From the NCBI GenBank assembly GCA_964016885.1, contig OZ024762.1:1984001-2048000 (forward strand): a DNA stretch of 64,000 bases. Direction: 5' to 3'. Shown one piece after another: positions 3,993-56,977 of this stretch. Under the pieces are notes generated by a model, which saw nothing but the letters and a program-made list of their open reading frames with translations, was not told where the DNA came from and made no database searches. Made by a program: the position numbers and the translations under genes. The stretch is from Eledone cirrhosa. Its lineage: Eukaryota. Every line of letters starts with the position of its first letter. The stretch's first letter is position 1.

Positions 3993-4009
3993 CTTCAATA
4001 AAGAGAAAC

Positions 4010-4650: not shown

Positions 4651-4688
4651 CTGTAAAAAAACAAGAGAAAATATCTTTATATATTTAT

Positions 4689-5377: not shown

Positions 5378-5782
5378 CTGGCAAGATTAACACAAGAGAA
5401 ATACATCATGATTAAAGGTATAACATTTACATTACTCTATATATACTATTGTATCTTTGTGGTAAAGGTTTTACTTTACATAATATCTCACATAATATCG
5501 AATAGACGAGATTTTGATGTTATTTATTTTGAGAATAATACCTTAATATCAGAACTAGATGCCAGTTACAGCTGGTTTGAACAGAAAAGGGTGAGAGAAT
5601 TGTAGCCGGATAGGGCCGATTTAAATGCTAAAGGGTTAAAGGTATAGTGTCCTTAAATCTTGGTGGAGTTATAGTGAGGAGAGTGTAGAAACATACAGCA
5701 AATCTCTCTCTCTCTCTATATATATATATATCATTTAGTGTCCATTTTCCATGCTAATATCTATCTATCTATGTAATAACTA

Positions 5783-5990
5783 AGAGAAGGTACCAGTAAT
5801 ACATTTGGTCAACAATATGTCTTAACTAAGACAAGGTACCAGTAATACACTTGGTCAACAATATGTCTTAACTAAGAGAAGGTACCAGTAATACACTTGG
5901 TCAACAATATGTCTTAACTAAGAGAAGGTACCAGTAATACACTTGGTCAACAATATGTCTTGGTTAAGACAAGGTACCAGTAATACTTAC
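5783..5990. repeat. 46-bp minisatellite (about 4.5 copies) derived from the NPAT exon 7 donor junction
   Basis: Unit AAGGTACCAGTAATACACTTGGTCAACAATATGTCTTAACTAAGAG. Confidence 0.85.
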
Positions 5991-6170
5991 GGTCAACAGT
6001 ATGTCTGTCATTAGTTTATCACATTCAGCAGGTTGTTTTTCTTCCACCTTTTTCTGGTCACTGATCTTCTCGACTAAGTCTATCTTGGAATCACCGTAGA
6101 GTTTCTTGTTAATGTTTGCTGCCAGAGCTTTAGCCAGGCTGGTCTCAGAAATTACTTTTTCAACAAATGT
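5991..6170 (-). CDS. NPAT: NPAT coding exon 7 (LAKALAANINKKLY)
   Basis: TTTTACAG acceptor, GTAAGT donor, 180 nt; LAANINKKL resembles the conserved NPAT LAENINKFL motif. Confidence 0.85.
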
Positions 6171-6429
6171 CTGTAAAACCAAACAGAGAGACATATTTAT
6201 TTAAAATTTTAAAAACACATAGTATGCTGGTGACATGACAAAAAGGACTCAGTCCATTGTGTAAGATAGTAGTGCTGGTGAAACAACAAAAAGTACCTTG
6301 TTCACTCTGTAAGGTTGTCATGCAGGTGATATGATAAAAAAACACCAGTACGTGTCTTCGATAAAAGACCAGCTTTATTCAACAACAGAATAGAAATAGG
6401 GATAGAATTTTAAAGAGATAAAACCTTAC

Positions 6430-6538
6430 AGGGATAGAATCTTTGTTATAAGAGCCATCTTGACTGTTATTGGGATCAGTTCGCAGTTGGGATGGTCCAG
6501 CTACGCAAATGTCCAGAGGTCTTTTCTCGGGTGGACAG
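6430..6538 (-). CDS. NPAT: NPAT coding exon 6 (RCPPEKRPLDIC...DSIP)
   Basis: CTTGTAG acceptor, GTAAGG donor, phase 2-0; bridges the phases of exons 5 and 7 exactly. Confidence 0.75.
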
Positions 6539-6554
6539 CTACAAGAGACAGGAA

Positions 6555-6995
6555 TTAATTAATTAATTTAGGAATATATAATTAATTTAGGAATATATAA
6601 TTAATTTAGGAACACATAATTAATTTAGGATCACATATAATTAATTTAGGAATATATAATTAATTTAGGAACACATAATTAATTTAGGAACACACAATTA
6701 ATTTAGGATCACATATAATTAATTTAGGAATATATAATTAATTTAGGAATATATAATTAATTTAGGAACACATAATTAATTTATGATCACATATAATTAA
6801 TTTAGGAATATATAATTAATTTAGAAACACACAATTAATTTATGATCACATATAATTAATTTAGGAATATATAATTAATTTAGGAACACATAATTAATTT
6901 ATGATCACATAATTAATTTAGGAATACATAATTAATTTAGGAACATATAATTAATTTAGAAACATGTAATTAATTTAGGAACATATAATTAATTC
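6555..6995. repeat. ~19-21-bp AT-rich minisatellite (TAATTAATTTAGGAATATA)
   Basis: More than 20 direct copies. Confidence 0.9.
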
Positions 6996-7864
6996 AGCAA
7001 TACATATAATTTGAAGCAAGAATATACTTCTTGAAAGTACTCCCACGATTTCTCAAAGACCTGCCACAGTGTGAATATTCGGTCAGCTGTGCTGCGTCTA
7101 GGGTGAAAACCACACTGTTCATCAGCTAGCTTGGACATGACAATCTCCCTACAGCGCTTTGCCAGACACTTAGCATAGACTTTACCAAGGAAGCTTAACG
7201 AGGAGATCACAGGCTCTGATATTACAGGCATGTGGTTAGAATGTCTCAGGAAAGAACTGCTGGACAGATTTTACAAGCAAAATCAACTGGCAGGAGACCC
7301 AGGGGTAGACCCCAAACAAGATGGTTGGATAACATCCATGAGCTTGGCTGGTAATGCTAGGGGGATCCAGCCGAATCAGTTGGAGACGGTTGCATCTGAC
7401 AGGACCCACTGGAAGGAGTGTTTGAGGATTCTTCTCCCCATGACCCTCTCAGGAATAAGTGGGAGAAGTAAGCATATAATTAATTTAATCTAATCTAATC
7501 TGGCTGAGTTTACACTCGCAAATAAAAAGAACCAGGGCCGCCTCTGGGAACATTGGATTTGTTGTACTTTACATTTGTTTCGGTTGTTGAATACAATCAG
7601 AGGTCACTGCTTCTCCTGAAGGTCAATAGTTCTCTTCTAATTCGAGCGGGAGCACCTTTCCATCGTCAATTTGCATTGTTCATCTGCAAAGCCACATTGT
7701 TCTCAGAACCACTACACCAGTCTTTAGATGTGGGCAGCTGGAACTACTGCCACCCATTGATTTGGCGGAAAATTAATTTAACAACACAGTTAATTTAATG
7801 GGCTGATAATTAGCTGATAACTGCCTCAAAATGTCCCGTCCAGCCCATGCCAACAACAATGATA

Positions 7865-8055
7865 ATTCTTTCTACCTTTGGCACAAGGCCAGCAATTATC
7901 CAGTGCATTACTGGTACTTTATTTTATCGACCCCGTAAAGATTGAAAGGCAAAGTTAACCTCGGCGGGATTTGAACTCAGAATGGCAAGGGTCGTAACTC
8001 TATGCATCAAGCAAAGCATGGCGTCTGACTCTCTACCGATACTGCCAATCCACAA
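7865..8055 (-). mobile_element. SINE (ACTGGTACTTTATTTTATCGACCCC...GGGATTTGAACTC family)
   Basis: B-box-like GAGTTCAAATCCC on the minus strand; copies at 33285-33475, 42915-43780 (cluster), 50200-50290, 58345-58555, 58840-58935 and 59960-60100. Confidence 0.7.
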
Positions 8056-8085
8056 TGATGATGATGATGATGATGATATACGTAC

Positions 8086-9436
8086 CGTTTCCGCTTTGAT
8101 TTTCCATAATCTGATTCTGACTGCTTCAAAGGAGTGAATGAGTCAAAGAAAGCGCCATCTTTGTCTCTGACCGGGGTGTTCAAGGTGTCGTGTAGATGCG
8201 CAACTTTCTGGGTAGAAGATTTCACTGGAGTTCGATAAATACTAGACGGGGTCTTCGTCGGAGTCAACGCCAGCCCGGCTATACTGTAGAAATTGGGTTG
8301 TGTCATCGAAGACAACAGAGTGGGTGACGTAGTGAATGAGGGGGCGAGTAAAGATAGATTGTTTGTAGGTAGAACTGTTGGTGACGTTGCTGATGGTGAT
8401 GATGTGGTGGTGGTGGTGGTGGTGTGGTGTAGTGGTGGTGTGGTGGTGGTGGTGGTGGCGGTGGTGGTGGTGGTGGTGGTGGCGGTGTTGTCAGTGATTG
8501 TGGTGGATGGGGAGATGGGAGTTGAAGGAGATGGTGGGGTATTAACGCTAGAAACTGGGACCAGGGAATTAAGGGACACAGACAAAGACACAGAATCTGT
8601 AGATGGCTGTTTGGTGGTCTCGGCTGAAGACCGAGGATTTGAAGGTAACAAAGATGGACGCTCGGAATATTTTTCAGTGAGGTAAATGGTTGAAGCTGTG
8701 GTATTATTAACCAATTCTGTTGACATGACTGATTCTGTTAATGGTACTACTGTATTACTAGTAATATCAGTAGTAGTAGTTGCTGTAGTAATAGTAGTAG
8801 TAGTAGTAGTAGTAGTACTAATTGTTGTAGTTAATGTTGCAGGTGGTGATGGTGATGACGGTGGCAGTGGTTGTAATGAAGGTGATGGTGATGATGGTGA
8901 CAATGGTGGTGGTGGTAGTAGTACTGGTGATACTAATGATGGTGGTGGTGGTGGTAGTAGTAGTGGTGGTGGTGGTGGTGGTAGTAGTGGTGGTGGTGGT
9001 GGTGGTAGTAGTGGTGGTGGTGGTGGTGGTAGTAGTGGTGGTGGTGGTGGTGGTAGTAGTAGTAGTGGTGGTGGTGGTGGTGGTGGTGGTGGTAGTAATG
9101 GTGAAGGTGCTGATGATGATAATGGTGGTGGTAGGGGTGGTGGTAATGATAATGATGGTGGTAGGGGTAGTAGTTGTGGTGGTGGTAGTAGTGGCAGTAA
9201 CGGTGAAGGTGCTGCTGATGATGATAATGGTGGTGGTAGGGGTGAAGGAGATGATGAATTAGCAAGGGAGCCCTCTTCTAATGTTCTTTGATCAGGAGAA
9301 AACCCGGCAGGCGCCGGTCTGACACTGACGGACTCCTGTTTATCACATGATGGTTTCTTCACACCGCCCTCCGCTGGACTAGAGACCAGCATCCCTGAGA
9401 CTGTCATGGCATTTTGTAGGATGTCAGACTCTTTAG
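8086..9436 (-). CDS. NPAT: NPAT coding exon 5 (poly-Pro/poly-Thr low-complexity region, CDK-type TPxK/R sites)
   Basis: TTCTTCTCAG acceptor, CG|GTACGT donor, phase 1-2; lies within ORF 8007-9407. Confidence 0.75.
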
Positions 9437-9493
9437 CTGAGAAGAAAATAGAAAGAAGTTATATAAAAATGTTTAAAATATATATAAAAATGT

Positions 9494-9794
9494 AATCATC
9501 ATCATCATCATCATTTTACGTACGCTTTTCCTTAAAGGGATGATGATGATGATAGTGAGGATAATGATGGTGATGGTGGTGGTGGTGATGATGGTGATGG
9601 TGGTGGTGATGGTGATGATGGTGGTGATGGTGGTGATGATGGTGGTGATGGTGATGGTGATGATGGTGGTGATGGTGATGGTGATGATGGTTTCAGTGAA
9701 AGTGAGATGGTGATAGTGATAATAAGAGTGATGGTGGTGATGATGATAGTGGCGGTGATGGTGATTGTGATGGTGGTGATGGTGATAATGATGG

Positions 9795-9825
<31 letters not shown>

Positions 9826-9830
9826 AGTGA
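9494..9830. repeat. (GAT/GGT)n trinucleotide low-complexity tract
   Basis: Directly visible. Confidence 0.9.
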
Positions 9831-10165
9831 TGGAAAATTTTAAAAAACAACTAAACTTTAAACAACAATGGCTTAACACAGCTTAATGACTTTTGTTTGT
9901 TTGTCGGCTTCTTTCTTTCTTTTGAAAACCATTTTCCAAGAAATGCCAGTAGAAGGAAGACGCAGTAGAGGAAGACCACGAAAAACATAGGCGGAGGTGG
10001 TGACAGCTGACCTCAGATCTCTGAAGCTGACAGAGGAGATGACGAAGGACTGTGACAAGTGGAGAGATGATGTGCTGAATAGGACCCGTCCAACCCTTGC
10101 AAGCAGGGAAAAGCGGACGTAAAATGATGATGATGATGATGAAACTTCTAGAAAGAGATATTTAC

Positions 10166-10403
10166 CAGTTGAAGTATGCAAGGTGTTGTTGTTAGCTTGG
10201 TTATTACTGTTGTTGTTGCCATATTGTGGAAACTTTCTTTCTTCGTGTCTCTCTTCTGTCTCCACCACCACCTCTTCAGTTGCCCCACTCAGGTCTGTGT
10301 TAGGGGACAATTGACATGAGGAACTCAAGGAATTTATATCACAGTCTAAGTTGTCTGCTCTTTCACTTTGTTGGGTTTTCGTTGAAAGATATTGATTGTT
10401 CGG
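10166..10403 (-). CDS. NPAT: NPAT coding exon 4
   Basis: TTTTACAG acceptor, G|GTAAAT donor, phase 0-1, open frame. Confidence 0.72.
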
Positions 10404-10790
10404 CTGTAAAATGGAATTGATTGGAAAATATTCAATGGAAGATATCGTCATATATTATCTGGATTAAATTTATTATGTTCAATTGTAGTTCAATACACAA
10501 AGAACAGAAATGTCAAACGTGAGTTGTGTGGCTTAGTACAGGGGTTCCCAACCACCAGGGCGCGGACCAGTACCAATACGTGGATCATTTGCTACTAGGC
10601 CGCAAAGAAATAATTAACTTGTTTATCATCATCGTCGTTTAACGTCTAAAATTATATAATAGATAAATTGAATATTGGACTCTAATTTAAAAAGATTTCT
10701 TTAAATATTCAATATTCATCTACTCAATACACTTTTTCTTCCCTTTAATAAATTACTCTTTTTATTATTGCTCTCTTTATCGAAATGCAC

Positions 10791-12335
10791 TTAAACCCTT
10801 TAGCATTACTCTATATATACTATTGTATTTTCACAGTAAAGTCTTTACCTCACATAATATCTCACATAACATTTACATTACTCTATATATACTATTGTAT
10901 TTTCACAGTAAAGTCTTTACCTCACATAATATCTCACATAACATTTACATTACTCTATATATACTATTGTATTTTCACAGTAAAGTCTTTACCTCACATA
11001 ATATCTCACATAACATTTACATTACTCTATATATACTATTGTATTTTCACAGTAAAGTCTTTACCTCACATAATATCTCACATAACATTTACATTACTCT
11101 ATATATACTATTGTATTTTCACAGTAAAGTCTTTACCTCACATAATATCTCACATAACATTTACATTACTCTATATATACTATTGTATTTTCACAGTAAA
11201 GTCTTTACCTCACATAATATCTCACATAACATTTACATTACTCTATATATACTATTGTATTTTCACAGTAAAGTCTTTACCTCACATAATATCTCACATA
11301 ACATTTACATTACTCTATATATACTATTGTATTTTCACAGTAAAGTCTTTACCTCACATAATATCTCACATAACATTTACATTACTCTATATATACTATT
11401 GTATTTTCACAGTAAAGTCTTTACCTCACATAATATCTCACATAACATTTACATTACTCTATATATACTATTGTATTTTCACAGTAAAGTCTTTACCTCA
11501 CATAATATCTCACATAACATTTACATTACTCTATATATACTATTGTATTTTCACAGTAAAGTCTTTACCTCACATAATATCTCACATAACATTTACATTA
11601 CTCTATATATACTATTGTATTTTCACAGTAAAGTCTTTACCTCACATAATATCTCACATAACATTTACATTACTCTATATATACTATTGTATTTTCACAG
11701 TAAAGTCTTTACCTCACATAATATCTCACATAACATTTACATTACTCTATATATACTATTGTATTTTCACAGTAAAGTCTTTACCTCACATAATATCTCA
11801 CATAACATTTACATTACTGTATATATACTATTGTATTTTCACAGTAAAGTCTTTACCTCACATAATATCTCACATAACATTTACATTACTCTATATATAC
11901 TATTGTATTTTCACAGTAAAGTCTTTACCTCACATAATATCTCACATAACATTTACATTACTCTATATATACTATTGTATTTTCACAGTAAAGTCTTTAC
12001 CTCACATAACATTTACATTACTCTATATATACTATTGTATTTTCACAGTAAAAGGCTTTACCTCACATAATATCTCACATAACATTTACATTACTCTATA
12101 TATATTATTGTATTTTCACAGTAACGGCTTTACCTCACATAACATTTACATTACTCTATATATACTATTGTATTTTCACAGTAAAGGCTTTACCCCACAT
12201 AATATCGAATCTATGAGATTTTGATATTGTTTATTTTGAGAACAATAACTCAACATCAGTATGAGTGGCCAGTTACAGCTGGTTTCAACAGATAGAGGTA
12301 AGAGAATTCTGGCCAGATATGGCTGGTTTCTATGT
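10791..12335. repeat. 72-bp minisatellite (about 19 copies, 10805-12200) amplified inside a piggyBac-like MITE
   Basis: Near-identical 72-bp units; begins at TTAAACCCTTTAGCATT; unit and downstream body match single-copy MITEs at 5420-5640, 28490-28715 and 56978-57193. Confidence 0.9.
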
Positions 12336-12719
12336 GTTTAGATAGCATAACAATTGTTATCTATATAAACACATAGAAACATGTGAACCATTATTAATAT
12401 AGAGACTAATGAAATCACTTCTTTCATTTAACGACTGTCACTAATAAAGTGGGAAGGTGTGTGGTTAAGTGGGTAGGCTGTTTGACTCATGATTGCAAGG
12501 TCATGTGTTCAATTCCTGGACCGTGTGGTATGTTGTCTCCTTGAGCAAGACACTTTATTTCACATTGCTACAGTCCAGTCAACTGACAAAAATGAGTTGG
12601 ACTTGTAATTCAAGGGGCCAGCCTTGTAACCCTATTTCAAAGCGTTCCTATTTAAATTAAAAGCCTTCCTCATAATTTTAAGTAAAAGAAAGAAATTTAC
12701 AATCCATCTTTTGCATATT

Positions 12720-12960
12720 AAAAAATTGGATTATCTAAAATTATTTTTTCACAGCAAAATAGAATTATCCAGAAAGGAGAGAATTATATTTCCAAAGAAA
12801 AATAGGATTATCTAGGAAAGAGAGAATTATTTTTTCAAAGGAAATTAAGATTATCTAGAAGAAAACTATATTTTCAAAGCAAAATAGAATTATCTAAAAG
12901 AGAGAGAATTATTTTTTTCACAGTAAAATAGGATTATCAAGAAAGGAGAGAATTATAATT
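12720..12960. repeat. Degenerate ~33-bp tandem repeat adjoining the NPAT exon 3 donor
   Basis: AAAATAGRATTATCTAGAAAGGAGAGAATTAT recurs about 6 times. Confidence 0.65.
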
Positions 12961-12971
12961 TCAGTAGTTAC

Positions 12972-13240
12972 CTTCTGGATAGTAATACTGTTTTTCTTTA
13001 ACCTTTGAATCAACTCTCGTGGAGTGTGCGTCGAAGATAACAATTCATCACCAATTTTATCAGGAATAATCGTAATTGTGCCTCTGTTGTGAACCTTTCG
13101 TTGAGTTCGAAATTTGGAAATGCTTGTTACTGTATTGTTGGAATGGTTCTCAAAAGTTCGGTATTTCAGTTTGTCCAAGAGTCTTTCAATATCTCTCCAT
13201 AGTGAATCAATAGACGTACAGGAATTATAGCGTTCAAGAG
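12972..13240 (-). CDS. NPAT: NPAT coding exon 3 (ALERYNS...SLWRDIERLLDKLK...ITIQK)
   Basis: TAG acceptor, AAG|GTAACT donor, phase 1-0; SLW..(I/L)...L..(L/I) resembles NPAT SLWKKLDHTLSQIR. Confidence 0.8.
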
Positions 13241-13829
13241 CTAAAACAAACAAACAGAATATTAACATATTAGCAGCCAGTTGTTGTTGTTACAGCTCAC
13301 ACCTATGTGTGTGTGTATGTGACAGCTCACACCTATGTGTATGTGTGTGTGACAGCTCACACCTATGCAGGTTTAGCTGGCCTCCTCCAAGGTAAATCTC
13401 GTTGGAGGTGTCTTGGGTGATTTAATGATAAGGACCCCACATATTAACATATTAATAGTCAATAATACAGTGTAAATGTGGTTTGTGTTAGGAAGGGCAT
13501 CCAGCTGTAGAAACCAAGCCAGAAACAGTTCTGTGTGAGCAAGACTTGGTCATCTGATCTGACTTGTCTCACAACAGGACAACCCATCTAACCTATGTTA
13601 GCGTTGAAAAATGGACGTTAATGATGATAATGATCATCATCATCAATAACTTCAGTTGATGGTTAGTTCTGTGTGATAGACAAACTAGGTAATCCCCTCA
13701 AGTACTACAATCTAGGGGTACTCAACAATTACCTAGAATACAGGGGTGTAAGGTGATCTCCTAGAATGCTAAAATCTTATAAAATAACCATTTTATGTAA
13801 TAACCGTCTTGTATAATAACCATATGCTT

Positions 13830-14170
13830 TGTTGGAGGTGCAATGTAAGTGTGAGAGAAAGGCAGAGCTTGGACGAGCTGAGGGAGAAGCTAGGCTAAAG
13901 AGGAATCTGAGGTGGTGTGCTGGAGAGAAAACTGTGTTGTACATGGACAATGACCGATGGGTGAAGAAATGCCAGGAAATCCCAGTGGAAGGAAGCTGCA
14001 GTAGAGGATGACCAAGAAAGATCTGGGCAAAGGTTGTAAGAGCTGACTTCAAATCGCTAAGACTGACAGAGGAGATTATGAAGGAACGCGATATGTGGGG
14101 AGATGCTGTGCTGAAAAGGACACGTCCAACCCATGCAAGCATGGAAAAGTGGGCATAAAAACGATGAAGA
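13830..14170 (+). mobile_element. RTE-type LINE 3' fragment
   Basis: WVKKCQEIPVEG...GRPRK relic; similar fragments at 9940-10142, 19330-19850, 34056-34428, 37565-38270 (-) and 47950-48430 (-), usually with (GAT)n tails. Confidence 0.8.
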
Positions 14171-14386
14171 TATAATAACCATCATCACCACCATTTTACG
14201 TCCATTCTTCCGTGCTAGCTTGCTTTAGATGTAATAACCATCTTAGGTGCAATAACAATCTTATGTAACAACTATCTTATGTAATAACCATCATCATCAC
14301 CGTTTTATGGCCATTATTCCACACTAGCATGGGTTAGATGTAATAACCATTGTAGATGTGATAACAGGAAAACAAGAAGCACTTAC

Positions 14387-14557
14387 CTTGAGTTTTCATG
14401 AAACCAAAGTTGTCCAACATTTCTATTAAACTGAGGCCCAGGATATTTGTTGGGTATTCAAAGCCTTTCTTCTTTAATTCATTATATTCACTAAGATATT
14501 TACACTCTTTGAGGAAAATCTTGGTTGTCTGTACAAAACCATGTTCGGTTAAGTAGC
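14387..14557 (-). CDS. NPAT: NPAT coding exon 2 (GYLTEHGFVQTTKIFLKECKYLSEY...FMKTQ, LisH domain)
   Basis: CAG acceptor, GTAAGT donor, 171 nt, phase 1-1; resembles NPAT GYL...F..ES..L.EY...L..IL.EY..MK. Confidence 0.88.
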
Positions 14558-15052
14558 CTGTAGATAGAATACATCTCATTATACACCTCCATTCAACCTT
14601 CAACAAATACATGTTGATAGTTATTGAAATTTCAATGAGTTAACGTGTTGCTGGGAATTGAACTTATAACCTTAAGATTGCGAGTCGAATACCCTAACCA
14701 CAAAACCATGCTTAGTGGTTAACACCCTAACTACAAAGTATGGTTTGTGGTTAGGGTGTTCAGCTGACAAACGTAAGGTTGTGAGTTCGATTCCTGGTAG
14801 TATGTTGTGTCATTGAAATTCTAAAACGCGAGTGACCCAAATGCAGAAAATAACTACAATAAATCAATCATTATAGATAATAGTGTAATGACATGTGGCT
14901 TTTCTGTGGTGTCACCAGCACGATCACCTTACAGGGTGAACTGGGTGCATTTTGTATGTCACCAGCACAACCACATTACAGGGTGAACTGGGTACTTTTT
15001 GTAGTATCACCAGCATGACCACCAATTAAAAGAATACAGATAAAGGGCTTAC

Positions 15053-19270: not shown

Positions 19271-20199
19271 ATATAGATAGAACATATATATATATTGGTA
19301 GGTTCTATAGAAGTGGTTCATAGCTTCCGGGACCTAGGGAGGGGGTGTTCCGGGGCCATAGTATCTAGAATAAGGACGAGTTGGAAGTAGTTGATGGAGC
19401 TGCTTCCTCTGTTGACAAAGAAGGGTTTCTCCCTGCGTACGAAATGCATGGTAGTGAGACATGGGCAGCAACTGCAGAGGATATGTGACGGTTGGAGAGA
19501 AATGAAGCAAGCATGCTCTATTGGATGTGCAATGTCAATGTACGTGGGCGACCAAGCATAGAGGAGTTGAGAGAGAAACTGTGTATAAGGGGGATAAGTT
19601 GTGGTGTGCAGGAGAGAAGACTGAGATGGTATGGACATGTCATGTGCATGTAGGACAACCGCTGGGTAAAGAAGTGCCAAGAAATCCCAGTGGAAGGAAG
19701 ACCACGAAAAACATGGGTGGAGGTGGTGAGAACAGACCTCAGATCGCTGAAGCTCACGATGACGAAGGACCGTGACGAGTGGAGAGATGCTGTGCTGAAT
19801 AGGACCCGTCCCACCGTTGCAAGCAGAGAAAAGCAGACGTAAAATGATGATTGGGGCCGGAAATACCACAAATCAATGAAGTACTCGATACGTGGTAAGA
19901 TGCCGAGTGGGTATATTAGTGAAAAATGGATGTTAAATGGTGATGATGATCCCCAGTTTATCAATATAGAAATATATGTTTTTCACTGTTAAATCTCTCT
20001 GTTTTAAGTATTCTCTATTATCTCATACTGCTTCTTTATTATTTCAGAATATCAGATGACATTTGATGGAAATAGAGCAAAATGGACATTTGTTTGGGAT
20101 AAACTATAAGAACTAAAATAAGATAAAATATCCATATATTTTGGTGGAAAAAACTGAATTATTTGAAAAATTTAAGAGATTTATTTTATTCTAGAAGAA

Positions 20200-21678
20200 A
20201 TGCTAAAAAATATAGAAAAATCATTTTACCAATGTGATATCTGTGGTAAATCGTTCTCTCAGAAAGGTAACTTAAATACTCACACACGGAGTCATACAGG
20301 TGAGAAACCTTATCGCTGTGATATTTGTGGTGAATCATTCTCTCAAACTGGACATTTACATAGACATAAACGCACTCATACAGGAGAAAAGCCATACCAC
20401 TGTGATGTCTGCAGTAAATCCTTCTTTCAAAATAGTGAATTAACTATTCACAAACATATCCATACAGGTGAGAAGCCATACCAATGTAATATTTGTGATA
20501 AATCATTCACTCGAAGTGATGGCTTAACTAGACACAAACAAATTCACACAGGAGAGAAGCCCTACCACTGTGAAATCTGTGGTGTTTCGTTCTCCGAGAC
20601 TGGTCACTTAACTACTCACAAACGTATTCATACAGGGGAGAAGCCATATAAATGTGATGTGTGTGGTAAATCATTCTCTGAAAGTAGTCACGTAACTACT
20701 CACAAGCGTATTCATACAGGACAGAAACCATATCACTGTGATGTCTGTAGTAAGTCATTCTATCAGAAAGGAAACTTAACAACTCACAAACATATACATA
20801 CAGGAGTGAAGCCTTATCACTGTGATGTGTGTGGTAAATCGTTCTCTAAAAGTAGTCACATAATTACTCACAAACGTATTCATACAGGAGAGAAACCATA
20901 TCATTGTGATATTTGTGGTAAATCATTCTCCGAAACAGGTCACTTAACTAGTCATAAACGTATTCATACAGGAGAGAAGCCATTTCACTGTGATACCTGT
21001 GGTAAATCATTCTCTGAAACGGGTCACTTACATAGACACATACGTACTCATACAGGAGAGAAGCCATACCACTGTGATATCTGTAGTAAATCATTCTCTC
21101 AAACTGGTACCTTAACTAAACACAAGTATACTCATATTAAAATTAAGTCATATCGCTGTAATATTTGTGGTATATCCTTCTTTCAAAGCAGTGACTTAAC
21201 AACTCACAAACGTATACATACAAAAGAGAAGTCACATCATTGTGATGTCTGTGGTAAATCATTCACTCGAAATAGTGACTTAACTAGACACAAATATATT
21301 CATACAGGAGAGAAGCGATATCACTGTGATATCTGTGATAAATCATTCTCTCAAAATAACGAATTAACCAAGCACGTATATATTCATACAGGAGAGAAGC
21401 CATATCTCTGTGATACCTGTGGTAAATCATTTTCTAGAAGTAACCACTTAACTACGCATAAACGCATTCATACAGGAGAGAAACCATATCACTGTGATAT
21501 CTGTGGTAAATCATTCTCTGAAGCAGGTACCTTAACTACACATAAACGTATTCATACAGGAGAAAAGCCATATCACTGTGATGTCTGTGGTAAATCATTC
21601 TCGAGAAGTAGTCACTTAACTATACACAAACGTATTCATACAAGAGAGAAACCATATCACTATGATATCCATGGTTAA
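20200..21678 (+). CDS. C2H2 zinc-finger protein A, 17 tandem fingers, no effector domain (492 aa)
   Basis: Intact ORF with CxxC...HxxxH fingers and TGEKPY linkers; acceptor TTTCAG at 20047. Confidence 0.95.
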
Positions 21679-24642: not shown

Positions 24643-25677
24643 TTAGACTTCTGTATGAATAACAACATGTCTTGTTAAGTTACTTTTTTCGGAGAAAGAT
24701 TTACCACAGATGTCACAGTGATGTCGCTTCTCTCCTGTATGAATGCGTTTGTGAGTAGTTAAAGTACGTTTCTCAGAGAATGATTTACCACAGACATCAC
24801 ATTTATATGGCTTCTCACCTGTATGAACACATTTGTGATTAGTTAAGGTGGCAGCTTCAGAAAATGATTTACCACAGACATCACAATGATGCGACTTCTC
24901 TCGTGTATGAATGCGTTTATGAGTAGTTAATGTACTACTTAGGGAAAACGATCTATCACAGATATCACAATGATATGGCTTCTCTCCTGTGTGAATGCGT
25001 TTGTGTCGAGTTAAGCCATCACTTCGAGAGAATGATTTATCACAGATATCACAGCTGTATGGCTTCTCTCCTGTATGAATACGCTTGTGAATAATTAAGG
25101 AACTACTTCCAGAGAATGATTTATCACAGACATCACAACGATATGGTTTCTCTCCTGTATGAATACGCTTGTGAGAAGTTACATGACTACTTCCAGTGAA
25201 CGATTTACCACACACATCACATTTATATGGCTTTTCACCTGTATGGATTCGTTTGTGAGTTGTTAAATGACCAGTTTCAGAGAATGAAACACCACACACA
25301 TCACAGTGGTAGGGCTTCTCTCCTGTGTGAATCTGTTTGTGTCTAATCACATGACCGCTTACAGAGAATGATTTACCACAGACATCGCATTTAAATGGCT
25401 TCTCACCTGTATGAGTACGCTTGTGAGTAGTTAATTCACTATTTTGAAAGAAGGATTTACTGCAGACATCACAGTGGTATGGCTTTTCTCCTGTATGAAT
25501 ACGTTTATGTCTATGTAAATGTCCAGTTTGAGAGAATGATTCACCACATATATCACAGCGATAAGGTTTCTCTCCTGTATGACTTCGTATATGAGTAGTT
25601 AGGTTTCCTTTTTGTGGAAAAGATTTACCACAGATATCACAGTTGTATGGTGATTTCCCTAAATTTTTTGGTGGCAT
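24643..25677 (-). CDS. C2H2 zinc-finger protein B, 12 tandem fingers (344 aa from ATG 25677), paralogue of ZNF-A
   Basis: Intact ORF; ATG at the position equivalent to the ZNF-A start; acceptor at 26106; candidate non-coding exons 26986-27060 and 27171-~27290. Confidence 0.93.
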
Positions 25678-26364
25678 TTCTTCCAGAAATAAAATAATTC
25701 CTTTAAATTTCTCAAATAATTTTTTTTCCACCAAAATATATGGATATTCTATCTTATTTTAGTTCTTATAGTTTATCCCAAACAAATGTCCATTTTGGTC
25801 TATTTTCATCAAATGTGGTCTTTGTTGATGTCTGAAAATACTGCAAACTTTTGTGTAAATTTATCCAACATTAGTTAGAGCAGAAAATTCTGTTGTAAAC
25901 ATTCCAGACAGTAAAGAAGATAAATTGTTTTGAATTAATCTCAGTTCAGAGGAAATATTCCACAGTAATTCTACCAAAGATTTATATCAACAGGACTGTA
26001 TATGTTCTGTATAACATCTTCCTTCCTTTTGTCTTTAAATGATGAGAAATATCGGTGATACATCAGATGTAAATAATTTATTCTATGGCAATGTCATCTT
26101 ATATTCTGAAATAATAAAGAAGCAGTATGAGATAATAGAGAATACTTAAACCATAGAGGTTTAACAGTGAAAACCTTACATTTCTATATTGATTAACTGT
26201 AGATCATCATCATCACCACTGTTTAACATCCATTTTTCCATGCTGGCATGGGTTAGATGAGTTGTCCCATTGTGAGACATGCCAGGTCAGGTGACCATGT
26301 CTTGCTCATACAGAACTGATTTGGGTTTGGTTTCTACAGCTGGATTTCCTTGCTAACGCCAACC

Positions 26365-31573: not shown

Positions 31574-31897
31574 GTATTTCCGTAGGAAAGGTAAAGGAAA
31601 AGAGAGTGCTCTATGTAGGCTACAGAGCTTTTTAGTTATGTAATAAACAACATAAGAATTATTCCATTTGGGAAAAAATCATCATTTGGACGGACTGATG
31701 ATTTCTCACTCATGAAACAGTTCTAGTCTAATAAATATTTATACTCTGCTTTGTATTGAGTACTTTACTTACTGTGGTTACCCCCGATTGAACCCGGGAT
31801 AAACTTATATATGTATATTTATATATATATATATATATATATATTACGTTCAGTCATTTCATAAACACTTTCATTTATTATATTTTATTTTATTCAG

Positions 31898-32172
31898 ACA
31901 CTAAATTGAAGAATTTAAAAGTTTCTGATTTAAAACAGAAGAATTTTAAATGGAAGCCCAATAGTCTTGAAGAATTTATCAAGTCTGCACATGAGAATTC
32001 CCTTCCTCAACTTGCTGTATTAACCTCTATCGATGAACTCAAAGAGAAATTTCACCTGGACGATGATAAAACACCTTTCGTTAATGACTTCATGTCAAAG
32101 CAGAAGTCACATGAAGTTGGCATTATGGCACTGCTGTGCCATCAACTATGTAAACAGTTTGATATATGTAAA
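31898..32172 (+). CDS. METTL25: METTL25 exon (FMSKQKSHEV)
   Basis: TTCAG acceptor, GTAAGT donor, phase 1-0; M..KKSHEV motif. Confidence 0.9.
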
Positions 32173-32564
32173 GTAAGTTGACATTTTCTCTGTGGGTGGG
32201 GTTAATCCTTTAGCATTTAAACCAGTCGTATCCGGCCAGAATTCTCTCACCTCTTTCTATTCAAACTGGCTGTAACCGGCTGCTCATACTGATGTTAAGT
32301 TATTTGTTCTCAAAATAAATAAGCCACGCACTTTCACAAAGGAGTGTCAGGTGCAAAAGAAAGAAGAACATATAATATATGGCAGGCTTCTGAACTGTCT
32401 CCCTCTACCAAATTCTACACACAAGGTATTTATTAATCAGTCTGTGGCCCTGGTTGAACCCAGAAACCCATAGTTTAGATGCTAAAGGGTTAAGAAATAT
32501 CTAATATCTCGCTAGAATTTGATGAAATCATTTATATTTCTTTCTTATCTTACTCATCCTACAG

Positions 32565-33195
32565 GTCGTTGACTTGGGCAGTGGTAAAGGTTATCTAGGG
32601 ACACAGCTGGCTTTCAACTACAATTTAAAAGTCTTCGGTATCGATGCTGCTGACCAGAACACATCTGGAGCTAACAAGAGAGCAAATATTTTGAAAAAAC
32701 AATGGCCTGGACTTATTAAAAAGTTCTCTGCTCTTAAAAATACTTATCAGAATATTCCACCAACTACAAAAGGAGGAAAAGCTCCAACTGCTGACCAAAA
32801 TATTTATGGGAAAGATCCATCAACTGGGAATGAAGGAAGAGCTCCAATAATGCAAGGTTGTGTTATCAGAGGTGGCAGCAGTAATCTTGAGAAATACGTG
32901 ACAAATGTCCCTGGCAAGGATGCTAGAGGTTTTTACTGTCCATTTACTACACACGTGAACAGTGATACGGATATTGTACAGTTGATTGCAGGCCGTGATA
33001 AATACGAAGTAGACGCTGATACATGCCAATACAGCAACAACAACAGTAAAGATAAGCTGCTTATAGCTGGACTCCATACTTGTGGCAATCTATGTCCAAC
33101 AACTCTTCGCTTCTTTTCTCAGAATTCGGCAGCTCATCTTCTCTGCAATGTCTCCTGCTGTTACCATCTTTTAACGGAACAATTTGATCCCAAAG
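32565..33195 (+). CDS. METTL25: METTL25 exon (SAM-binding VVDLGSGKGYL; GLHTCGNL; VSCCYHLL)
   Basis: Class I methyltransferase motif I plus METTL25-type LHTCG and CCYHLL motifs; phase 0-1. Confidence 0.93.
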
Positions 33196-33772
33196 GTGAA
33201 ATCACGCTATTTCAATTTTTATATGTTTGTCTTCTTCTAATAATAATAATAATGTTGTTGATGATGATGATACAATGATAATAATTGTTTCTACTTTTGG
33301 CACAAGGCCAGAAATTATCCCAGTGTATTACTGGTACTTTATTTTATCGACCCCGTAAGGATGAAAGGCAAAGTTAACCTCGGCGGGATTTGAACTCAGA
33401 CCATAAAGGGCCGTAACTCTATGCTGCAAAGCATGGCGTCTGACCCTCTACCGATACTGCCAATCCACCGCAATGATTTCTATATTATTTTCATCAATCC
33501 AAGCAGACATGTCCATATATATGTATGTATGTATTAATACATATATATATATATGTATTAATACATATATATATATATGTATTAATACATATATATGTAT
33601 GTATTAATACATATATATGTATGTATTAATACATATATATGTACGTATGTATATTTATATATATATCACCATCATCTTCGTTTAACATCCATCTTCCACG
33701 CTAGCATGGGTATATATCATCATCATCATCTTCGTCATCATTGCTTTTATATTCATTTTTCACATGTGTGTA

Positions 33773-33856
<84 letters not shown>

Positions 33857-33910
33857 TATAAAGTGTACCTGTATACAATAAATTCAGTCTATTTATTTGT
33901 TGTTTCTCAG

Positions 33911-34038
33911 GTGATCCAGGAAGTAACGTCTATGGCTTTCCACTTAGTTCCATTCTAAGAAAGAGGAAATTCTATTTAGGCCAAAATGCAAAAAATCTGG
34001 CTTGCCAGTCTGTGAACAGGATTGTAACATCTGGTAAG
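33911..34038 (+). CDS. METTL25: METTL25 exon (YGFPLS...GQNAKNLACQS)
   Basis: TTTCTCAG acceptor, AAG|GTATGT donor, phase 1-0. Confidence 0.88.
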
Positions 34039-34740
34039 GTATGTATATATATAAGCATGCTCCGTTGGATGTGCAGTGTCAATGTGCGTGAACGACCCAG
34101 CATGAATGTGTTGAGAGAGAAACTGTGACTGAGAGGGATAGAATGTAGTGTACGGGAGAGGAGACTGCGGTGGTATGGACATGTGATGCGCATGGAAGAT
34201 GACTGATGGGTAAAGAAGTGCCTGGAAATGCCAGTTGAAGGAAGACGTGGTAGAGGTAGACCACGAAAAACATGGGCGGAGGTGGTGAGAACAGACCTCA
34301 GATCACTGAAGCTCACAGTGGAGATGATGAAGGACCATGACGAGTGGAGAGATGCTGTGCTGAATAGGTCCCGTCCCACCCTTGCAAGCAGGGAAAGGCG
34401 GACGTAAAATGATGATGATGATGATGATATATATATATATATAAGCAAAAGGGATAAGTTTTATAAATATAGTTTCCATTTATTTAATATCATTGTATAT
34501 ATATATATATGAAATACTGTGTGTATGTTTATACAAACATATGTGTAGCTATATCTATATATTCATTTTATTAAGACTAAATAGTGAGTCTTGTTACTCT
34601 GGAGTGTGTGTGTATATATATATATATATATAGAGAGAGAGATATGTTTTTATAGATTTTACCATAAGTCTGTTATTCTCCAGTTCATCAGTTCTAATTC
34701 TCTCATGTGGGGGGTTTCTTTCTAAAAATTATTTTTCCAG

Positions 34741-34923
34741 TTATCCGGAGAATCCTTGTTCCAGCGAGCCCTTCTCCAGAAGATCTTTGTTGATATTTTA
34801 TCTGAACAGGAACAAAACTCTTTGAAGAATTCCATCAAATTAAGGAAATTGTCCAGCAAATCTCCTTCATTTTACGATTACGTGAAGATGGCTTTCCAGA
34901 AACTTGGCCATTCCTCGGAAAAG
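34741..34923 (+). CDS. METTL25: METTL25 exon (ESLFQRALLQ)
   Basis: TTTTTCCAG acceptor, AAG|GTTATA donor, 183 nt; resembles ESLFYRAVLQ. Confidence 0.88.
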
Positions 34924-35175
34924 GTTATAATTTTAGTTTTATTTGTATATCATTTGTTATTTTTATCACTCAACCCATGCTAGCGTGGAAATATGGACGT
35001 AAAAATATGGATTTTAAAATCATCATCATCGTTTAACGTCTATCTTCCACGCTATCATGGGTTAGACAGAAATTGTCCCAGTTGATGATGCTAATGCTAA
35101 AACTAAATTGCTTATTGTGAAAACCGATTGAGCATCCATCATATTAAATGTCTCCCTCTTATTCTTAATTTTCAG

Positions 35176-35322
35176 ATATCTGAAGAAATGGTTCAGGATT
35201 ATTTGTTAAAATACGAAGATGAAAGAAAAAGACTTGCTGCTTTTTTCCAGGTAAAATCTGCTCTGGCACCTTGTATTGAAGCCCTCATCACATTGGACAG
35301 AGTATATTACCTGTTAGAACAT
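35176..35322 (+). CDS. METTL25: METTL25 exon (LAPCIEALITLDRVYYLLE)
   Basis: TTTTCAG acceptor, GTAAGT donor; resembles LAPCIETLILLDRLCYL. Confidence 0.9.
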
Positions 35323-35721
35323 GTAAGTTTATATTTCTAGTTTATGTACGGAAGCTAAGAGAGTGATTGTAAAAAGAGAAAAATATGTGAGTGTGTTATT
35401 TATAGAAGTGGTCGCCAACCTTTTGGATCTCACGGTCCACTAAATTCATAATTTTAATTCCCATGGACCACTAATATGAAGTTTTTTTAAAAAGATAAAT
35501 ACATTTGTAAAATAATGATCAGAGAACTTCCATTTTATTAAACAATACTGAAGTGTATGTATGTCATATTGTCGATAGATGATATAAATATGTGTAAAAT
35601 TCTTTCATGGATATTAGTTCTTTACTGAGGAGAAACATTTTTTAGGGGTGTTATGAAATATATTTTAACCAAATATAATTTTAGTTTTATTATTAATAAA
35701 ACATAAAAATTGCAAATAATG

Positions 35722-44475: not shown

Positions 44476-44948
44476 TATTTATTTTGTCTTTTGTTCAATT
44501 TAAAAGATGTACTTTATTCATTTAAAAGAGTTCCTTGGTTAATCAATAAAATATTTTCTTCAACAAACGTGTTTCATTCGATCTGAGAAACAGGAAGATC
44601 GAATGAAACAAAGGTAAACGTTTTTCAGTTGAAATTTCCGCCGTCCTCCCTCCACATCTTCTCTTTATAAAACTTAATTTCATACGTTATAGCTTTAAAT
44701 TATATTTCCTTGTCTTCAGGATACGAAATTCTGCTCCATTGCTCCGTGATAAACCATCTATCTCTACAATCTCTACAGTCATTCCTCTCAATCAGTCTTT
44801 CTCAAATGTTTTGGTTTGGTTTGGTTTACATTTTTCGTTTATAAATTTGGAGGAAAAAAAAAAAAGCAACACATTTTTTTATCTAGGAAAAAAAAAAAAA
44901 AAAAAAATAATGGAAGGAATTTTTACGAAATACCATCTACACCCGTTT

Positions 44949-46628
44949 TTAAATATCTACTTGAATACCTTGTGTTGGTTTTGTTCCGTGTGAAGTTAGG
45001 GGTTGAGGGTGAACTGACCCTTGAAATGAACGTGATATCGCGATAGCTTCTCCGTTCGGAATGGCTCCGTCTAAATAAAATACAACAGGCAGGTAGGCTA
45101 CTACTGGTTGGCGGGTTTGTAACTGGTTAGGGTCGGATACTGCTGATAGAAGCTGAGTCTGGACTTGAGCCATTTGTAAAGGGGACAGAGAAGGTATTTG
45201 ATGCGGGGCCACTTCGGTGTACGCTTGTGCTGGTGCTATTTGGAAAGGCTGTTCCAATGCGCTAGCTTCAATCGGTTGGGTTTCGTTGCGAACTTGGGGC
45301 AGGCTGTTTGGTATATCCATGGCGTTTGTCTGAGACATTTTACTGTGACATTTATTCAGAACCGGATACACAATAGAGACATGGTTGTGTCGCTGGACTG
45401 AGCTATCTTCTGCTGGGAGCGTCTCGTTCTCGATTGAACTTTGAGGAAGGAATTCTCCGACAGAATCCACCATTTTCTCTCCCATCATTTCGATACCGTC
45501 TTGGCTTGATTGATTTTCTATTGATTCGTTTTTCAACAGGTTTTTTGGCGGATCTAAAACTGATCGATGGACTGGGTCTTCCTTCACGGCCCCTACAACT
45601 GTCTGTACAGAAATATTCCCGTTATTGCAGTTGATCGCTTTCTCTTGATCCTCAGCAAACATTTCCATTGGGGCCTGAACGGCAGGTTGTTCAGGGACGG
45701 TCTCACTAGTATGAGTGAGAGCCATCTGGGGTTCGAACATCATTTGCTGTACAGGACTAACCTCTTGTAAATGTATCGGGTGGATTATATAAGGTACCAT
45801 TACTCCCTGTACCGGATTCTGAGTATCAGATGCTGCTGGTTCGGTTACCTTTGGAAGTAAATTTACCTGAGAGTCCCTGAACGAGTCGGTTTCTTGTGAA
45901 TCATCGTCCATTCGGTTAGTCAGTATTTCCTTTGAAATATCTTCCCCAGTATTAGGATTAACTATTTGAATGAGAGATTGCTGTCTTCTCTGTTCCACCT
46001 TGTAACTCTGTATCGCTGGTACCGACATAGATTTCTGCGGGGGAAGAGAGTCGCCACATGAATGAATGTAGCTCATGGCGTTCGGATTAGAGAGGGTATG
46101 CGGGTAGAATGTCGGACTGTTGATAGTTGGGGTGGCCATATGGTAATGCTGAACCTGTGGCGGTGGTGGTGGGGGCAAGGGCGATTGGTTTGGCAGTAAA
46201 GTGGCCGGTTGAATCCATTGACCTGGGGCTGAATAAGTTATCACTTGATTGGGATTCAACAGTATTTGGTCTCCGGCAGATGGCGCTGTGTGGCTTGTCG
46301 GTGGTGACATGGAGTTTGAAAACTCCATTACTGGTGACAGCATTCCGTCATTTGACGCCGGAGACGAAGAATATATTGGCATAGTCTGGATGTTATGGGC
46401 AGAGTTTGGGAAATATTCGTTCATTTGAATTTTCATACTATCTCTTCGTTTCTGATACTGATTCACATTCTGGTGAGCACCGCAAATATTTGCTGAAACT
46501 TCCCCATTTTTTTTAGTCTCTTTATTAAAGAAATATTGGTTAGAATTTCGTTTTGATGACCGTTTATTGCGAGAATTTCTTTTGTGACTTTCAAAGTCAG
46601 TTCCAGGATGAGGTGCACTGTTATTCAT
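44949..46628 (-). CDS. 559-aa Pro/Gln/Ser-rich protein resembling the eIF4G N-terminal region with a PABP-binding-like motif; no MIF4G/MA3/W2
   Basis: Uninterrupted non-repetitive ORF; QRRQQSLIQIVNPNTGEDISKEIL resembles eIF4G [30 protein letters not shown] on the minus strand at ~44512. Confidence 0.7.
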   Translation of the reverse strand: MNNSAPHPGTDFESHKRNSRNKRSSKRNSNQYFFNKETKKNGEVSANICGAHQNVNQYQKRRDSMKIQMNEYFPNSAHNIQTMPIYSSSPASNDGMLSPVMEFSNSMSPPTSHTAPSAGDQILLNPNQVITYSAPGQWIQPATLLPNQSPLPPPPPPQVQHYHMATPTINSPTFYPHTLSNPNAMSYIHSCGDSLPPQKSMSVPAIQSYKVEQRRQQSLIQIVNPNTGEDISKEILTNRMDDDSQETDSFRDSQVNLLPKVTEPAASDTQNPVQGVMVPYIIHPIHLQEVSPVQQMMFEPQMALTHTSETVPEQPAVQAPMEMFAEDQEKAINCNNGNISVQTVVGAVKEDPVHRSVLDPPKNLLKNESIENQSSQDGIEMMGEKMVDSVGEFLPQSSIENETLPAEDSSVQRHNHVSIVYPVLNKCHSKMSQTNAMDIPNSLPQVRNETQPIEASALEQPFQIAPAQAYTEVAPHQIPSLSPLQMAQVQTQLLSAVSDPNQLQTRQPVVAYLPVVFYLDGAIPNGEAIAISRSFQGSVHPQPLTSHGTKPTQGIQVDI

Positions 46629-46847
46629 TTTGTAGTCCTTTATATATATATATTGTTTTTATAGATATGGTGTATATATATATATATGTGTGTGTGTATA
46701 TATATATATGTGTGTGTGTGTTTATATATATATATATGTGTGTGTGTGTGTATATATATGTATGTGTGTGTGTTTTGTTATTCGAAGTTTTAGTTTCTTT
46801 TTTTTTTTAGTTTAAAATAAATGTTTACGTTAATATAACTGATGTCC

Positions 46848-54547: not shown

Positions 54548-55681
54548 TCAGTGGCGTGTATTGTCCACACGTACCCCGTGTGTGTGTCCGTGTCCATGGG
54601 TGTGTCCGTGACCATGACTGTGTCCATGGCTGTGACTATGTCCGTGGCTGTGACTATGTAAATGGTTCCTCACGATCTGTGAGGGGCCTTTGTTGAAGTT
54701 CTTGACATTGACGCCAGCCTCGGCCGCCATACTGATCCCCACCCCTATCTCAGACGCCACCGACAGGGCGTCGCGAGTGTTCTCGCTCTGCTGCTGATCC
54801 ATTATCCGGTTCCTGGGGGGAGCAGCGCTGCACCCCCCACCGACAGCCGCGCAGCAACTGTCGCTGGCGCCGGCCCCGCAGCAAACACTGCCGGGGCAAA
54901 TACTTCCACAGCTGCCGTTTGAACACGTTGTTGTGTACATGGTCGGTTTACTCTCTGGAGGTGCAGTCATCTGGTTGGTAGGCATAGCAACGGGTTCTGG
55001 TTCACCGGCGTTAATATGTTTCCTTTTATGCTTCACTAGTGTTCCACACAGAGCAAACGCTGAGCCACAGTAATTACACACAAATGGTTTCTCACCTGTG
55101 TGAGTTCTCTGGTGTATTCTGAGATGTGATGAGTAGCTAAAGGTTTTGTTGCAGAACTGGCAAGTGAAGGGCTTCTCCCCTGTGTGGACTCTTCTGTGCA
55201 TGGCTAAATGCGAAGAATAGGAAAATGTCTTTTCACAATACTCGCAGGGAAATGGTTTTTCGCCGGTGTGTGTCCGTTTATGCATCTTTAAATGAGAAGA
55301 ATAACTAAAAGTCTTTGTGCAGAATTCACACGAGAATGGTTTCTCTCCGGTGTGCAGGCGTTCATGCATCTTCAAATGCGATGAATACGCGAAGGCCTTT
55401 CTACAGAAGTCGCAGGAGAAGGGTTTCTCGCCCGTGTGAATGCGTTTGTGCATGGCAAGGTGGGAGCTGTAGAGGAAGGACTTTCCGCAGTAGTTGCAGT
55501 TGAGGGATTTGCCCTTGTTGTTCACCATACGCATGGTCGTCGAAGGTTCCGGTACGGAAGGGCTCATGCCGCCGTAATTGGTTATGGTGCCGTCTTGCGG
55601 AGGTGGCGGCGGCGGGGGAGGCGGTGGGGGCGGGGGTGAGGAAGAGGAAGACTGGTGGCAATCTACATCAACACTCCACAT
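54548..55681 (-). CDS. C2H2 zinc-finger protein C: poly-Pro N-terminus, 6 fingers, Cys-rich segment, His-rich tail (377 aa)
   Basis: Intact ORF with TGEKPF linkers; acceptor TTGTAG at 56116; candidate upstream non-coding exon with donor CAG|GTATAT at 62936. Confidence 0.92.
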   Translation of the reverse strand: MWSVDVDCHQSSSSSPPPPPPPPPPPPPQDGTITNYGGMSPSVPEPSTTMRMVNNKGKSLNCNYCGKSFLYSSHLAMHKRIHTGEKPFSCDFCRKAFAYSSHLKMHERLHTGEKPFSCEFCTKTFSYSSHLKMHKRTHTGEKPFPCEYCEKTFSYSSHLAMHRRVHTGEKPFTCQFCNKTFSYSSHLRIHQRTHTGEKPFVCNYCGSAFALCGTLVKHKRKHINAGEPEPVAMPTNQMTAPPESKPTMYTTTCSNGSCGSICPGSVCCGAGASDSCCAAVGGGCSAAPPRNRIMDQQQSENTRDALSVASEIGVGISMAAEAGVNVKNFNKGPSQIVRNHLHSHSHGHSHSHGHSHGHGHTHGHGHTHGVRVDNTRH

Positions 55682-56977
55682 TGTTGCAGTGTGATGGTGG
55701 TATTATTAATAGTAGTAGTAGTAGTAGTGGTCGAAGGAACAGCAATGACAGACGCTGTCGGAAATAGACTACAGTGGAACCAAGATTCCGGTTAACACTG
55801 ATGGGGGAGAGGAGAAGAGGGTGGTGCAGTCTTGTCTTAAGTTTTACAAACAAAAGTGAGTATCATGTGTTGTTGATGCTGATGATGTATGTGTATTGTT
55901 ATTTAAAGTAGAACCTTCTAGAGAAATATCCACTGTAATGGCAGCCCCAGTTGGAAGAATTTCTGTATAAATTTCAGTTTGGTTTTTGGTTTAGTTTAAG
56001 AGATAAGATTCCTTCGGTGGGCAGATTAGGGATCGTGGAACCAAACGAAAGTCTCAGTTCCTAAAATCCATCTCCAGGTCTTCCGGGGGATCCTTCACAG
56101 ATCAGAAATGGAATCCTACAATGAAATACAATGAAATACATGAGTTTTTTTAAAAGAATCGTTAAAACAAAGAAGGAAAATCTTTAAAACCATATCTATC
56201 TCATGTGGCCTACATGATGAGCCATATCCCATGTGGCTCACATGGTTAGATATATCTCGTGTTGCCTACATGAGCTACACATTTCATGCGGTCCACACGA
56301 TGAGCTACATATCTCATGTGGCTTTGCCTTATGACAAGCTATATCATGTGGTCCAAATGATGGACTATATCACATGTGGTCTGCCTTATCATAAGTTATA
56401 TCTCATGTGGCCCACTGCTTGGTTTAGAATACTGAATACTCTTCCTTTCAGCGCCATATTTCCTATGAAAGACATTGCCTGTGGGTTTTTTTTTTTTTGA
56501 TTTCAAATAAATTTTACAGCCAAAATATTCACAATGGGCACTGCCATCTGTAGAAGATAGGAGAAGATAGCCCAAAACTGCAACATAACAGACAGGTTCT
56601 TTAGTGTGCTGGTCGCCATTGAGACCTCCAGTGTCCTTGGTCTCTGAATTGACTCTTTCCTCCTCAAAATTGGGAGGTGTAAGGACTACATCCCGCCTGA
56701 AGAAATAGCCTCCTCATGAGGTGTAATGACTAATGCAATGGGTATCACTGGCTGGTCTTTACAGCAATGCCTTTGCCATTTTGTCCACAAGGTCACAGCT
56801 GAGATTACACCCTCTAGACTGAGGGTAAGGGTGGGGTCTGCCATGCCCTAACCCCATCCACTTAACTTTCATTATAGAACTTTACTGAAATTTTTGCTTT
56901 ATTAATAAAAAAAAAACATAGAAAAAATTCAACAGATTTCACTTAATTTTTTTTTACATACAGTTTTAGAATAATCT

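Follow-up and report, generated by a model that had tools for sequence, protein, structure and literature searches.

The window analysed here, a 64,000-nucleotide stretch (G000:C23:1,984,001-2,048,000), contains a conserved, intron-less octopod gene that derives from eIF4G and whose product looks disordered. We hold, with moderate confidence, that this product docks on PABP and serves as a selective adaptor at the poly(A) tail. The features on which the argument turns are as follows.

44949..46628 (-): single-exon ORF, 559 aa plus stop, of an apparently octopod-restricted eIF4G-derived gene (ORF reading and orthologues)
45894..46478 (-): aa 51-245, in collinear alignment with aa 58-209 of eIF4G1, spanning four parental exons without three introns (hhalign, BLASTP, exon map)
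46230..46250 (-): 21-nt stretch with an 18/21 match to the spliced parent across one exon-exon junction (blastn, E 0.11 alone)
45921..45992 (-): predicted eIF4G-type PABP-binding motif, aa 213-236, 14/25 identical to the motif exon of the genome's own eIF4G
45906..45980 (-): longest invariant block, 25 aa (217-241), which holds the motif core (four orthologues compared)
44952..45893 (-): the last 314 aa, in which no homology to eIF4G was detected (0/12 pairwise tests significant)
44883..44968 (-): possible 86-nt intron, with a weak donor at 44968 and a T20 plus CCTAG acceptor (putative, from sequence only)
44518-44513 and 44483-44478 (-): two AATAAA hexamers, candidate poly(A) signals in AT-rich DNA (again from the sequence alone)

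The ORF and its surroundings

The ORF runs on the minus strand from an ATG at 46628 to a TAA ending at 44949, with no internal stop. Its product is rich in serine (10.7%), proline (10.6%) and glutamine (9.5%); a single 18-nt two-copy direct repeat is found within it among the repeats listed, and none of the 25 longest of 145 inverted repeat pairs lies in it. These properties uphold the description in the first-pass annotation of an intact, non-repetitive, Pro/Gln/Ser-rich ORF of 559 codons, and its placing of the PABP-binding motif at about 45921-45993 was likewise correct, the peptide it quoted being aa 213-236 (45992-45921). The stop, U-rich sequence and AATAAA that it reported after the ORF are all present: the U-rich sequence corresponds to a T20 run at 44907-44888, followed by CCTAG and readable also as a splice acceptor, and the hexamers at 44518-44513 and 44483-44478 stand about 430 and 465 nt beyond the ORF stop. 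The flanks, searched for a poly(A) remnant and a target-site duplication, traces that an old copy would not be expected to retain, hold only simple TA/CA repeats. Contigs from sequencing runs cover 44490-46637 without differences or joints in two of three runs (one study, type unrecorded); they perhaps come from the assembly's own sample, and are thus silent on expression of the ORF.

No Pfam family is recognised in the protein at E<=1. Strict and relaxed patterns for the eIF4E motif YxxxxL-phi gave no match and PF21140 is also absent, in agreement with the earlier remark that the canonical form of this motif is lacking; Pfam and tBLASTn of the flanks found no MIF4G, MA3 or W2 domain in the same gene. 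The protein has no canonical PAM2, only one loose regex match at aa 170, and neither Pfam nor AlphaFold2 found an RRM or other RNA-binding domain. The AlphaFold2 model, made from a four-row alignment, has a mean pLDDT of 29.1 and no folded domain; the only residues with pLDDT >=50 fall within aa 227-232, inside the PABP motif.

Elsewhere in the window, methyltransferase exons at 31792-35340 (+; PF13679, E 1e-22) are consistent with the METTL25 named earlier; the last exon of this METTL25-like gene was not located, and the ORF may lie within one of its introns. C2H2 zinc-finger ORFs lie at 20176-21678, 24643-25758 and 54548-55702 (-), the last of these Pfam-confirmed, and further ones at C23:1.716-1.728 Mb. 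Long low-complexity exons of 547, 490 and 483 aa occupy 172-14639 (-), where the exon at about 14334-14639 (-) may encode a LisH-bearing, NPAT-like N-terminus.

Derivation from the eIF4G N-terminus

Homology to eIF4G reaches about 160 aa upstream of the motif. The profile search against eIF4G that the first-pass annotation had proposed was done by profile-profile comparison with hhalign, which gave a probability of 95.3% and E 2.4e-8 over 151 columns, and BLASTP aligns ORF aa 113-243 with residues 105-207 of O. sinensis eIF4G1 at E 4e-9. An HMM of parent N-termini gives each of the four orthologues a higher score than any of the controls, which comprised 300 shuffles, four reversed sequences and four low-complexity ORFs of the window. 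Over the whole length, 13 of 16 pairs align with a score higher than that of any of 200 global shuffles; once the motif is cut away, at most two of 300 shuffles reach the score in 12 of 16 pairs, and the four failing pairs, all with the Argonauta eIF4G (32-65 of 300 shuffles), count against derivation. In ESM features, weak evidence here, two clusters of eIF4G N-terminal type rank first (0.91 and 0.90; recognition 1246).

The parent eIF4G was traced to C28, where the matching stretch is divided among four exons; their ends, canonically GT-AG, are modelled from GT-AG sites and protein homology rather than cDNA. The test for intron loss that had been suggested shows that the ORF, on C23, aligns in order across three parental introns that are missing from it, and is therefore most likely a retrogene. 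The 21-nt junction match was obtained with the spliced parent model, in which one donor, out of two GT sites 6 nt apart, was picked for its protein homology. It is very probable that the gene goes back to an eIF4G mRNA that was retroposed before the lineages of Argonauta and Octopus separated. The earlier suggestion of a derived (retro)paralogue that keeps only the PABP contact is in line with the eIF4G N-terminal homology, the missing introns, and the absence of eIF4E, MIF4G, MA3 and W2 parts.

A disfavoured reading: the ORF as an exon of ordinary eIF4G

The donor-like site at 44968 and three others within the ORF raise the question of whether the ORF is an ordinary eIF4G exon spliced to distant MIF4G exons; the motif might otherwise be a chance occurrence in an orphan gene. 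Both versions are already disfavoured, and we give them hardly any credence. The genome has a complete multi-exon eIF4G at C28:78.33-78.42 Mb, which includes MIF4G and C-terminal exons as well as an eIF4E motif and a PABP motif of its own. In tBLASTn searches with two full eIF4Gs, no eIF4G exon but the ORF was found in C23:1.904-2.098 Mb and none in C23:1.704-1.904 Mb; the absence of MIF4G-like exons downstream, noted earlier, thus extends over the 325 kb of downstream span covered. A genome scan for MIF4G returned seven matches, two of them on C23 (4.72 and 16.64 Mb), upstream and on the minus strand, which we take to be UPF2-like and DAP5-like. Family scans of this kind can miss genes, as the MA3 scan did with the C28 eIF4G, and the distal 1.7 Mb of C23 is covered solely by them.

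Nor does the 44968 donor, whose joining to distant MIF4G exons would have made this an ordinary eIF4G, appear to lead there. Its one strong acceptor within 12 kb, T20-CCTAG at 44883, would remove 86 nt and replace the last 6 residues by 14 others, followed by a stop. In one orthologue the donor codon encodes Asp, which leaves no room for a GT, and the unspliced tail is kept nonetheless; the unspliced C-terminus is indeed common to the orthologues. As to a chance motif, homology that covers about 160 aa ahead of it argues otherwise.

Conservation of the gene

Two homologous clusters were found among 2993 scored candidates, from Argonauta hians (556 aa) and Octopus vulgaris (490 aa, beginning at the second Met); a 554-aa Logan record from a contig of 2405 bases, in the same cluster as the O. 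vulgaris protein, is a third orthologue. Identity to the ORF protein is 71%, 75% and 74%, respectively. The stop position and the last three residues are identical in 4/4 orthologues; these residues (44952-44960, minus strand) form a hydrophobic-x-hydrophobic C-terminus that fits the class II PDZ-ligand pattern. Lack of conservation, which the first-pass annotation had named as telling against its proposal, is not what is seen: the three orthologues keep frame and stop. The candidate clusters and the representative profile search yielded no orthologues outside Argonauta, Octopus vulgaris and the Logan record. The profile search, of 1.84 billion representatives, returned solely the ORF's own cluster, so that the family looks octopod-restricted at that sensitivity. 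For eIF4G, though not for the ORF gene, the searches retrieved RefSeq-type proteins from O. sinensis and O. bimaculoides.

By protein-level measures the gene appears to be under purifying selection. When neutral mutation was simulated to 75% identity, 0 of 1000 copies stayed stop-free, whereas the real orthologues keep the frame. The 25-aa invariant block around the motif core is followed in length by a run of 15 aa, and a run of 25 was reached in 4 of 5000 permutations. Between this genome and Argonauta the N-terminal part of the ORF is identical at 181 of 233 residues, against 94 of 161 for the N-terminal part of the parent eIF4G; the tail is identical at 205 of 314, against 204 of 363 in the next 400 residues of the parent. 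Judged by these identities, the copy is conserved more tightly than the parent eIF4G N-terminus.

In a weak test, no longer homologues running through the motif region were found. A 186-nt piece of the ORF's interior (aa 116-173) lies decayed at G000:C28:96,630,700-96,630,885; it differs at residues that are otherwise invariant and is directly followed by a stop. Own-genome searches with the ORF motif alone or the parent motif alone each matched only themselves, and more diverged copies could therefore be missed.

The C-terminal tail is 65-68% identical to the tails of the orthologues, the only homologues detected, and contains short, hydrophobic, invariant blocks at aa 282-290, 333-344, 418-438 and 497-519; its AlphaFold2 pLDDT is under 50. 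An eIF4G origin of the tail was considered and rejected, alignments being insignificant in 12/12 pairs; the ESM features of aa 246-559, at 0.87 to eIF4G clusters, are a lead only.

The predicted PABP-binding motif

A motif profile of six sequences, two from the ORF family and four from parent eIF4Gs, searched against 177,635 PDB sequences, ranked human eIF4G peptides first and second, with modest E-values (1lj2_C, E 0.0094; 4f02_C, E 0.13). The 56-aa motif region of the ORF alone gave nothing at E<=10, and single-sequence PDB searches with the whole ORF or the parent motif exon gave no eIF4G match. The ORF family and four octopod eIF4Gs have ten invariant positions of the motif core in common, and the hydrophobic pattern aligns with that of the human peptides in 1LJ2 and 4F02. 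The flank is where the two differ: the 8 residues before the motif include 2 K/R in all four orthologues as opposed to 4 in all four octopod eIF4Gs, and net charge around the motif is -1 in the orthologues as opposed to +3/+4 in octopod eIF4G.

According to excerpts of the published accounts, eIF4G PAM1 binds PABP RRM2 (PMC12709193) and an N-terminal piece of eIF4G binds PABP in cells (PMC2386104); the basic flank of the human motif is implicated in this binding (PMC13081929, preprint; PMC4174440), and a basic-flank mutant still binds PABP, to a lesser degree (PMC4174440). The identity of the motif, together with the residual binding of the flank mutant in that one study, makes PABP binding by the ORF protein likely. 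We consider it probable that the motif still binds, and because its basic flank is reduced it may do so more weakly or with a preference for another PABP paralogue.

It is conceivable instead that this eIF4G-derived gene no longer binds PABP and that the block has been kept for another partner or function. The net charge near the motif is reversed in 4/4 orthologues, the invariant block outreaches the parental motif, and the single-sequence PDB search was blank, as such a change of use would lead one to expect. The invariance of the ten core positions across the ORF family and four octopod eIF4Gs, and the match of the hydrophobic pattern to peptides 1LJ2 and 4F02, argue against it, and we think it rather unlikely.

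Possible modes of action

A PABP-docking adaptor would work as follows. Residues 51-245, which derive from the N-terminus of eIF4G and were most likely acquired by retroposition, would give the disordered-looking product a likely docking site on PABP RRM2, at the place used by eIF4G; a PABP molecule occupied in this way would be closed to eIF4G, and the conserved blocks of the tail would bring other partners to PABP. The outcome would be changed translation, stability or storage for a subset of mRNAs, not a shutdown of bulk synthesis. This chain, in which the bound protein excludes eIF4G, recruits partners by its tail and alters a subset of mRNAs, has in our judgement about an even chance of being correct. 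Counting against an adaptor, no RNA-binding domain or partner was identified that would account for mRNA selectivity. A germ-line setting for the gene is our guess from general knowledge of retrogenes.

The first-pass annotation had suggested a PABP decoy that breaks the closed loop; as a pure decoy, like Paip2, the protein would titrate eIF4G off PABP and broadly lower translation. The motif has been kept, invariant, while the eIF4E and MIF4G parts are gone, and competition with eIF4G for PABP is, in the excerpted text of PMC2386104, an established route to repression, taken by Paip2 and Musashi1. This proposal has lost ground nonetheless. In human cells, according to excerpts of a 2026 preprint (PMC13081929), bulk translation is not repressed by the PABP-only caspase-3 N-fragment of eIF4G1, while the 2A N-fragment of eIF4G needs both eIF4E and PABP for repression; the contact between eIF4G1 and PABP is described there as dispensable for bulk synthesis, and as mattering more for termination, NMD and mRNA stability. 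A global decoy is weakened by this lack of repression by PABP-only fragments and by the loss of basic charge at the motif, whose flank is reduced. A tail of 314 aa conserved at 65-68% is, moreover, beyond a decoy's needs; on account of this new, conserved tail we favour the adaptor, and a pure decoy seems to us unlikely.

Other eIF4G and PABP loci in the genome bear on a further reading, in which the ORF protein is the N-terminal piece of a split eIF4G, acting in trans with another gene and rebuilding a specialised eIF4F. At G000:C5:48,006,076-48,007,446 (+) an intron-less, eIF4G-derived ORF of 457 aa has an eIF4E-motif-like stretch and MIF4G; MA3/W2 and the PABP motif were not found, the latter in 40 kb of flank searched. 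At G000:C22:19.862-19.876 Mb (-) a second multi-exon eIF4G paralogue has an eIF4E motif, MIF4G and C-terminal exons; the match starts at the eIF4E motif, and no N-terminus with a PABP motif was detected in the 140 kb searched. About 60 kb upstream of it is an intron-less ORF that we take to be pinin-like. Two intact, intron-less PABP genes, 633 and 620 aa long and 51% identical, lie at C21:9.161-9.163 Mb and C7:42.140-42.142 Mb, the former canonical-looking and the latter divergent; C1 carries at least two C-terminal partial PABP copies (236.755 and 260.814 Mb), and MLLE matches number seven genome-wide.

The middle piece on C5, the start of the C22 match at the eIF4E motif, the absence of a PABP motif from the flanks searched of both, and the divergent intron-less PABP on C7 would all suit a split eIF4G. 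The pieces are nevertheless on separate contigs, and in the C5 motif, which the PF21140 scan does not list, Ile stands in place of the canonical Leu; we regard this reading as very unlikely. A more general notion, speculative and with a small chance of being right, is that in octopods the proteolytic dissection of eIF4G has become fixed as separate genes, a tissue-specific kit made up of the PABP-only N-piece, the C5 middle piece, the C22 paralogue and the C7 PABP retrocopy. If true, such a split-gene kit would uncouple cap-driven initiation from poly(A)-tail control.

Comparison with known systems

A search of the open-access literature found no description of the ORF gene. The role of the eIF4G-PABP contact in cells is disputed, one preprint (PMC13081929) finding it dispensable for bulk initiation. 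A natural gene centred on this contact would be a ready test case, and is a candidate octopod-specific mRNA regulator.

With metazoan eIF4G1 and eIF4G3 the ORF protein shares a collinear N-terminal region, about 190 aa long, with the PABP-binding (PAM1) motif at its end. The gene differs from theirs in having no CDS introns, in encoding 559 rather than about 1600-1700 aa with an unrelated tail of 314 aa, and in the fewer basic residues that precede its motif. The PABP motif is present, but the eIF4E motif and the MIF4G/MA3/W2 domains, two defining features of canonical eIF4G, are absent, and the gene is therefore not a canonical eIF4G member.

The closest likeness in layout is to the caspase-3 N-fragment of human eIF4G1 (casp3-cpN), which in the excerpted account (PMC13081929) also has the PABP site and no eIF4E or eIF4A/eIF3 sites; casp3-cpN is, however, a proteolytic product, whereas the ORF is a separate gene with its own selection and a new tail. 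The C5 gene, in its turn, resembles in architecture the caspase-3 middle fragment of eIF4G. Paip2 and Musashi1, as excerpted from PMC2386104, are alike in the proposed mode, in which a protein devoid of initiation-factor modules takes the place of eIF4G on PABP; no sequence link to them was found, and the ORF protein would compete by means of eIF4G's own motif. DAP5/eIF4G2 (p97) is similarly a truncated eIF4G paralogue with its own gene, but it is the mirror image, having, according to excerpts of PMC12709193, kept MIF4G/MA3/W2 and lost the PABP and eIF4E sites. Truncated eIF4G paralogues known so far, such as DAP5, lose the PABP site; the octopod gene retains that site alone.
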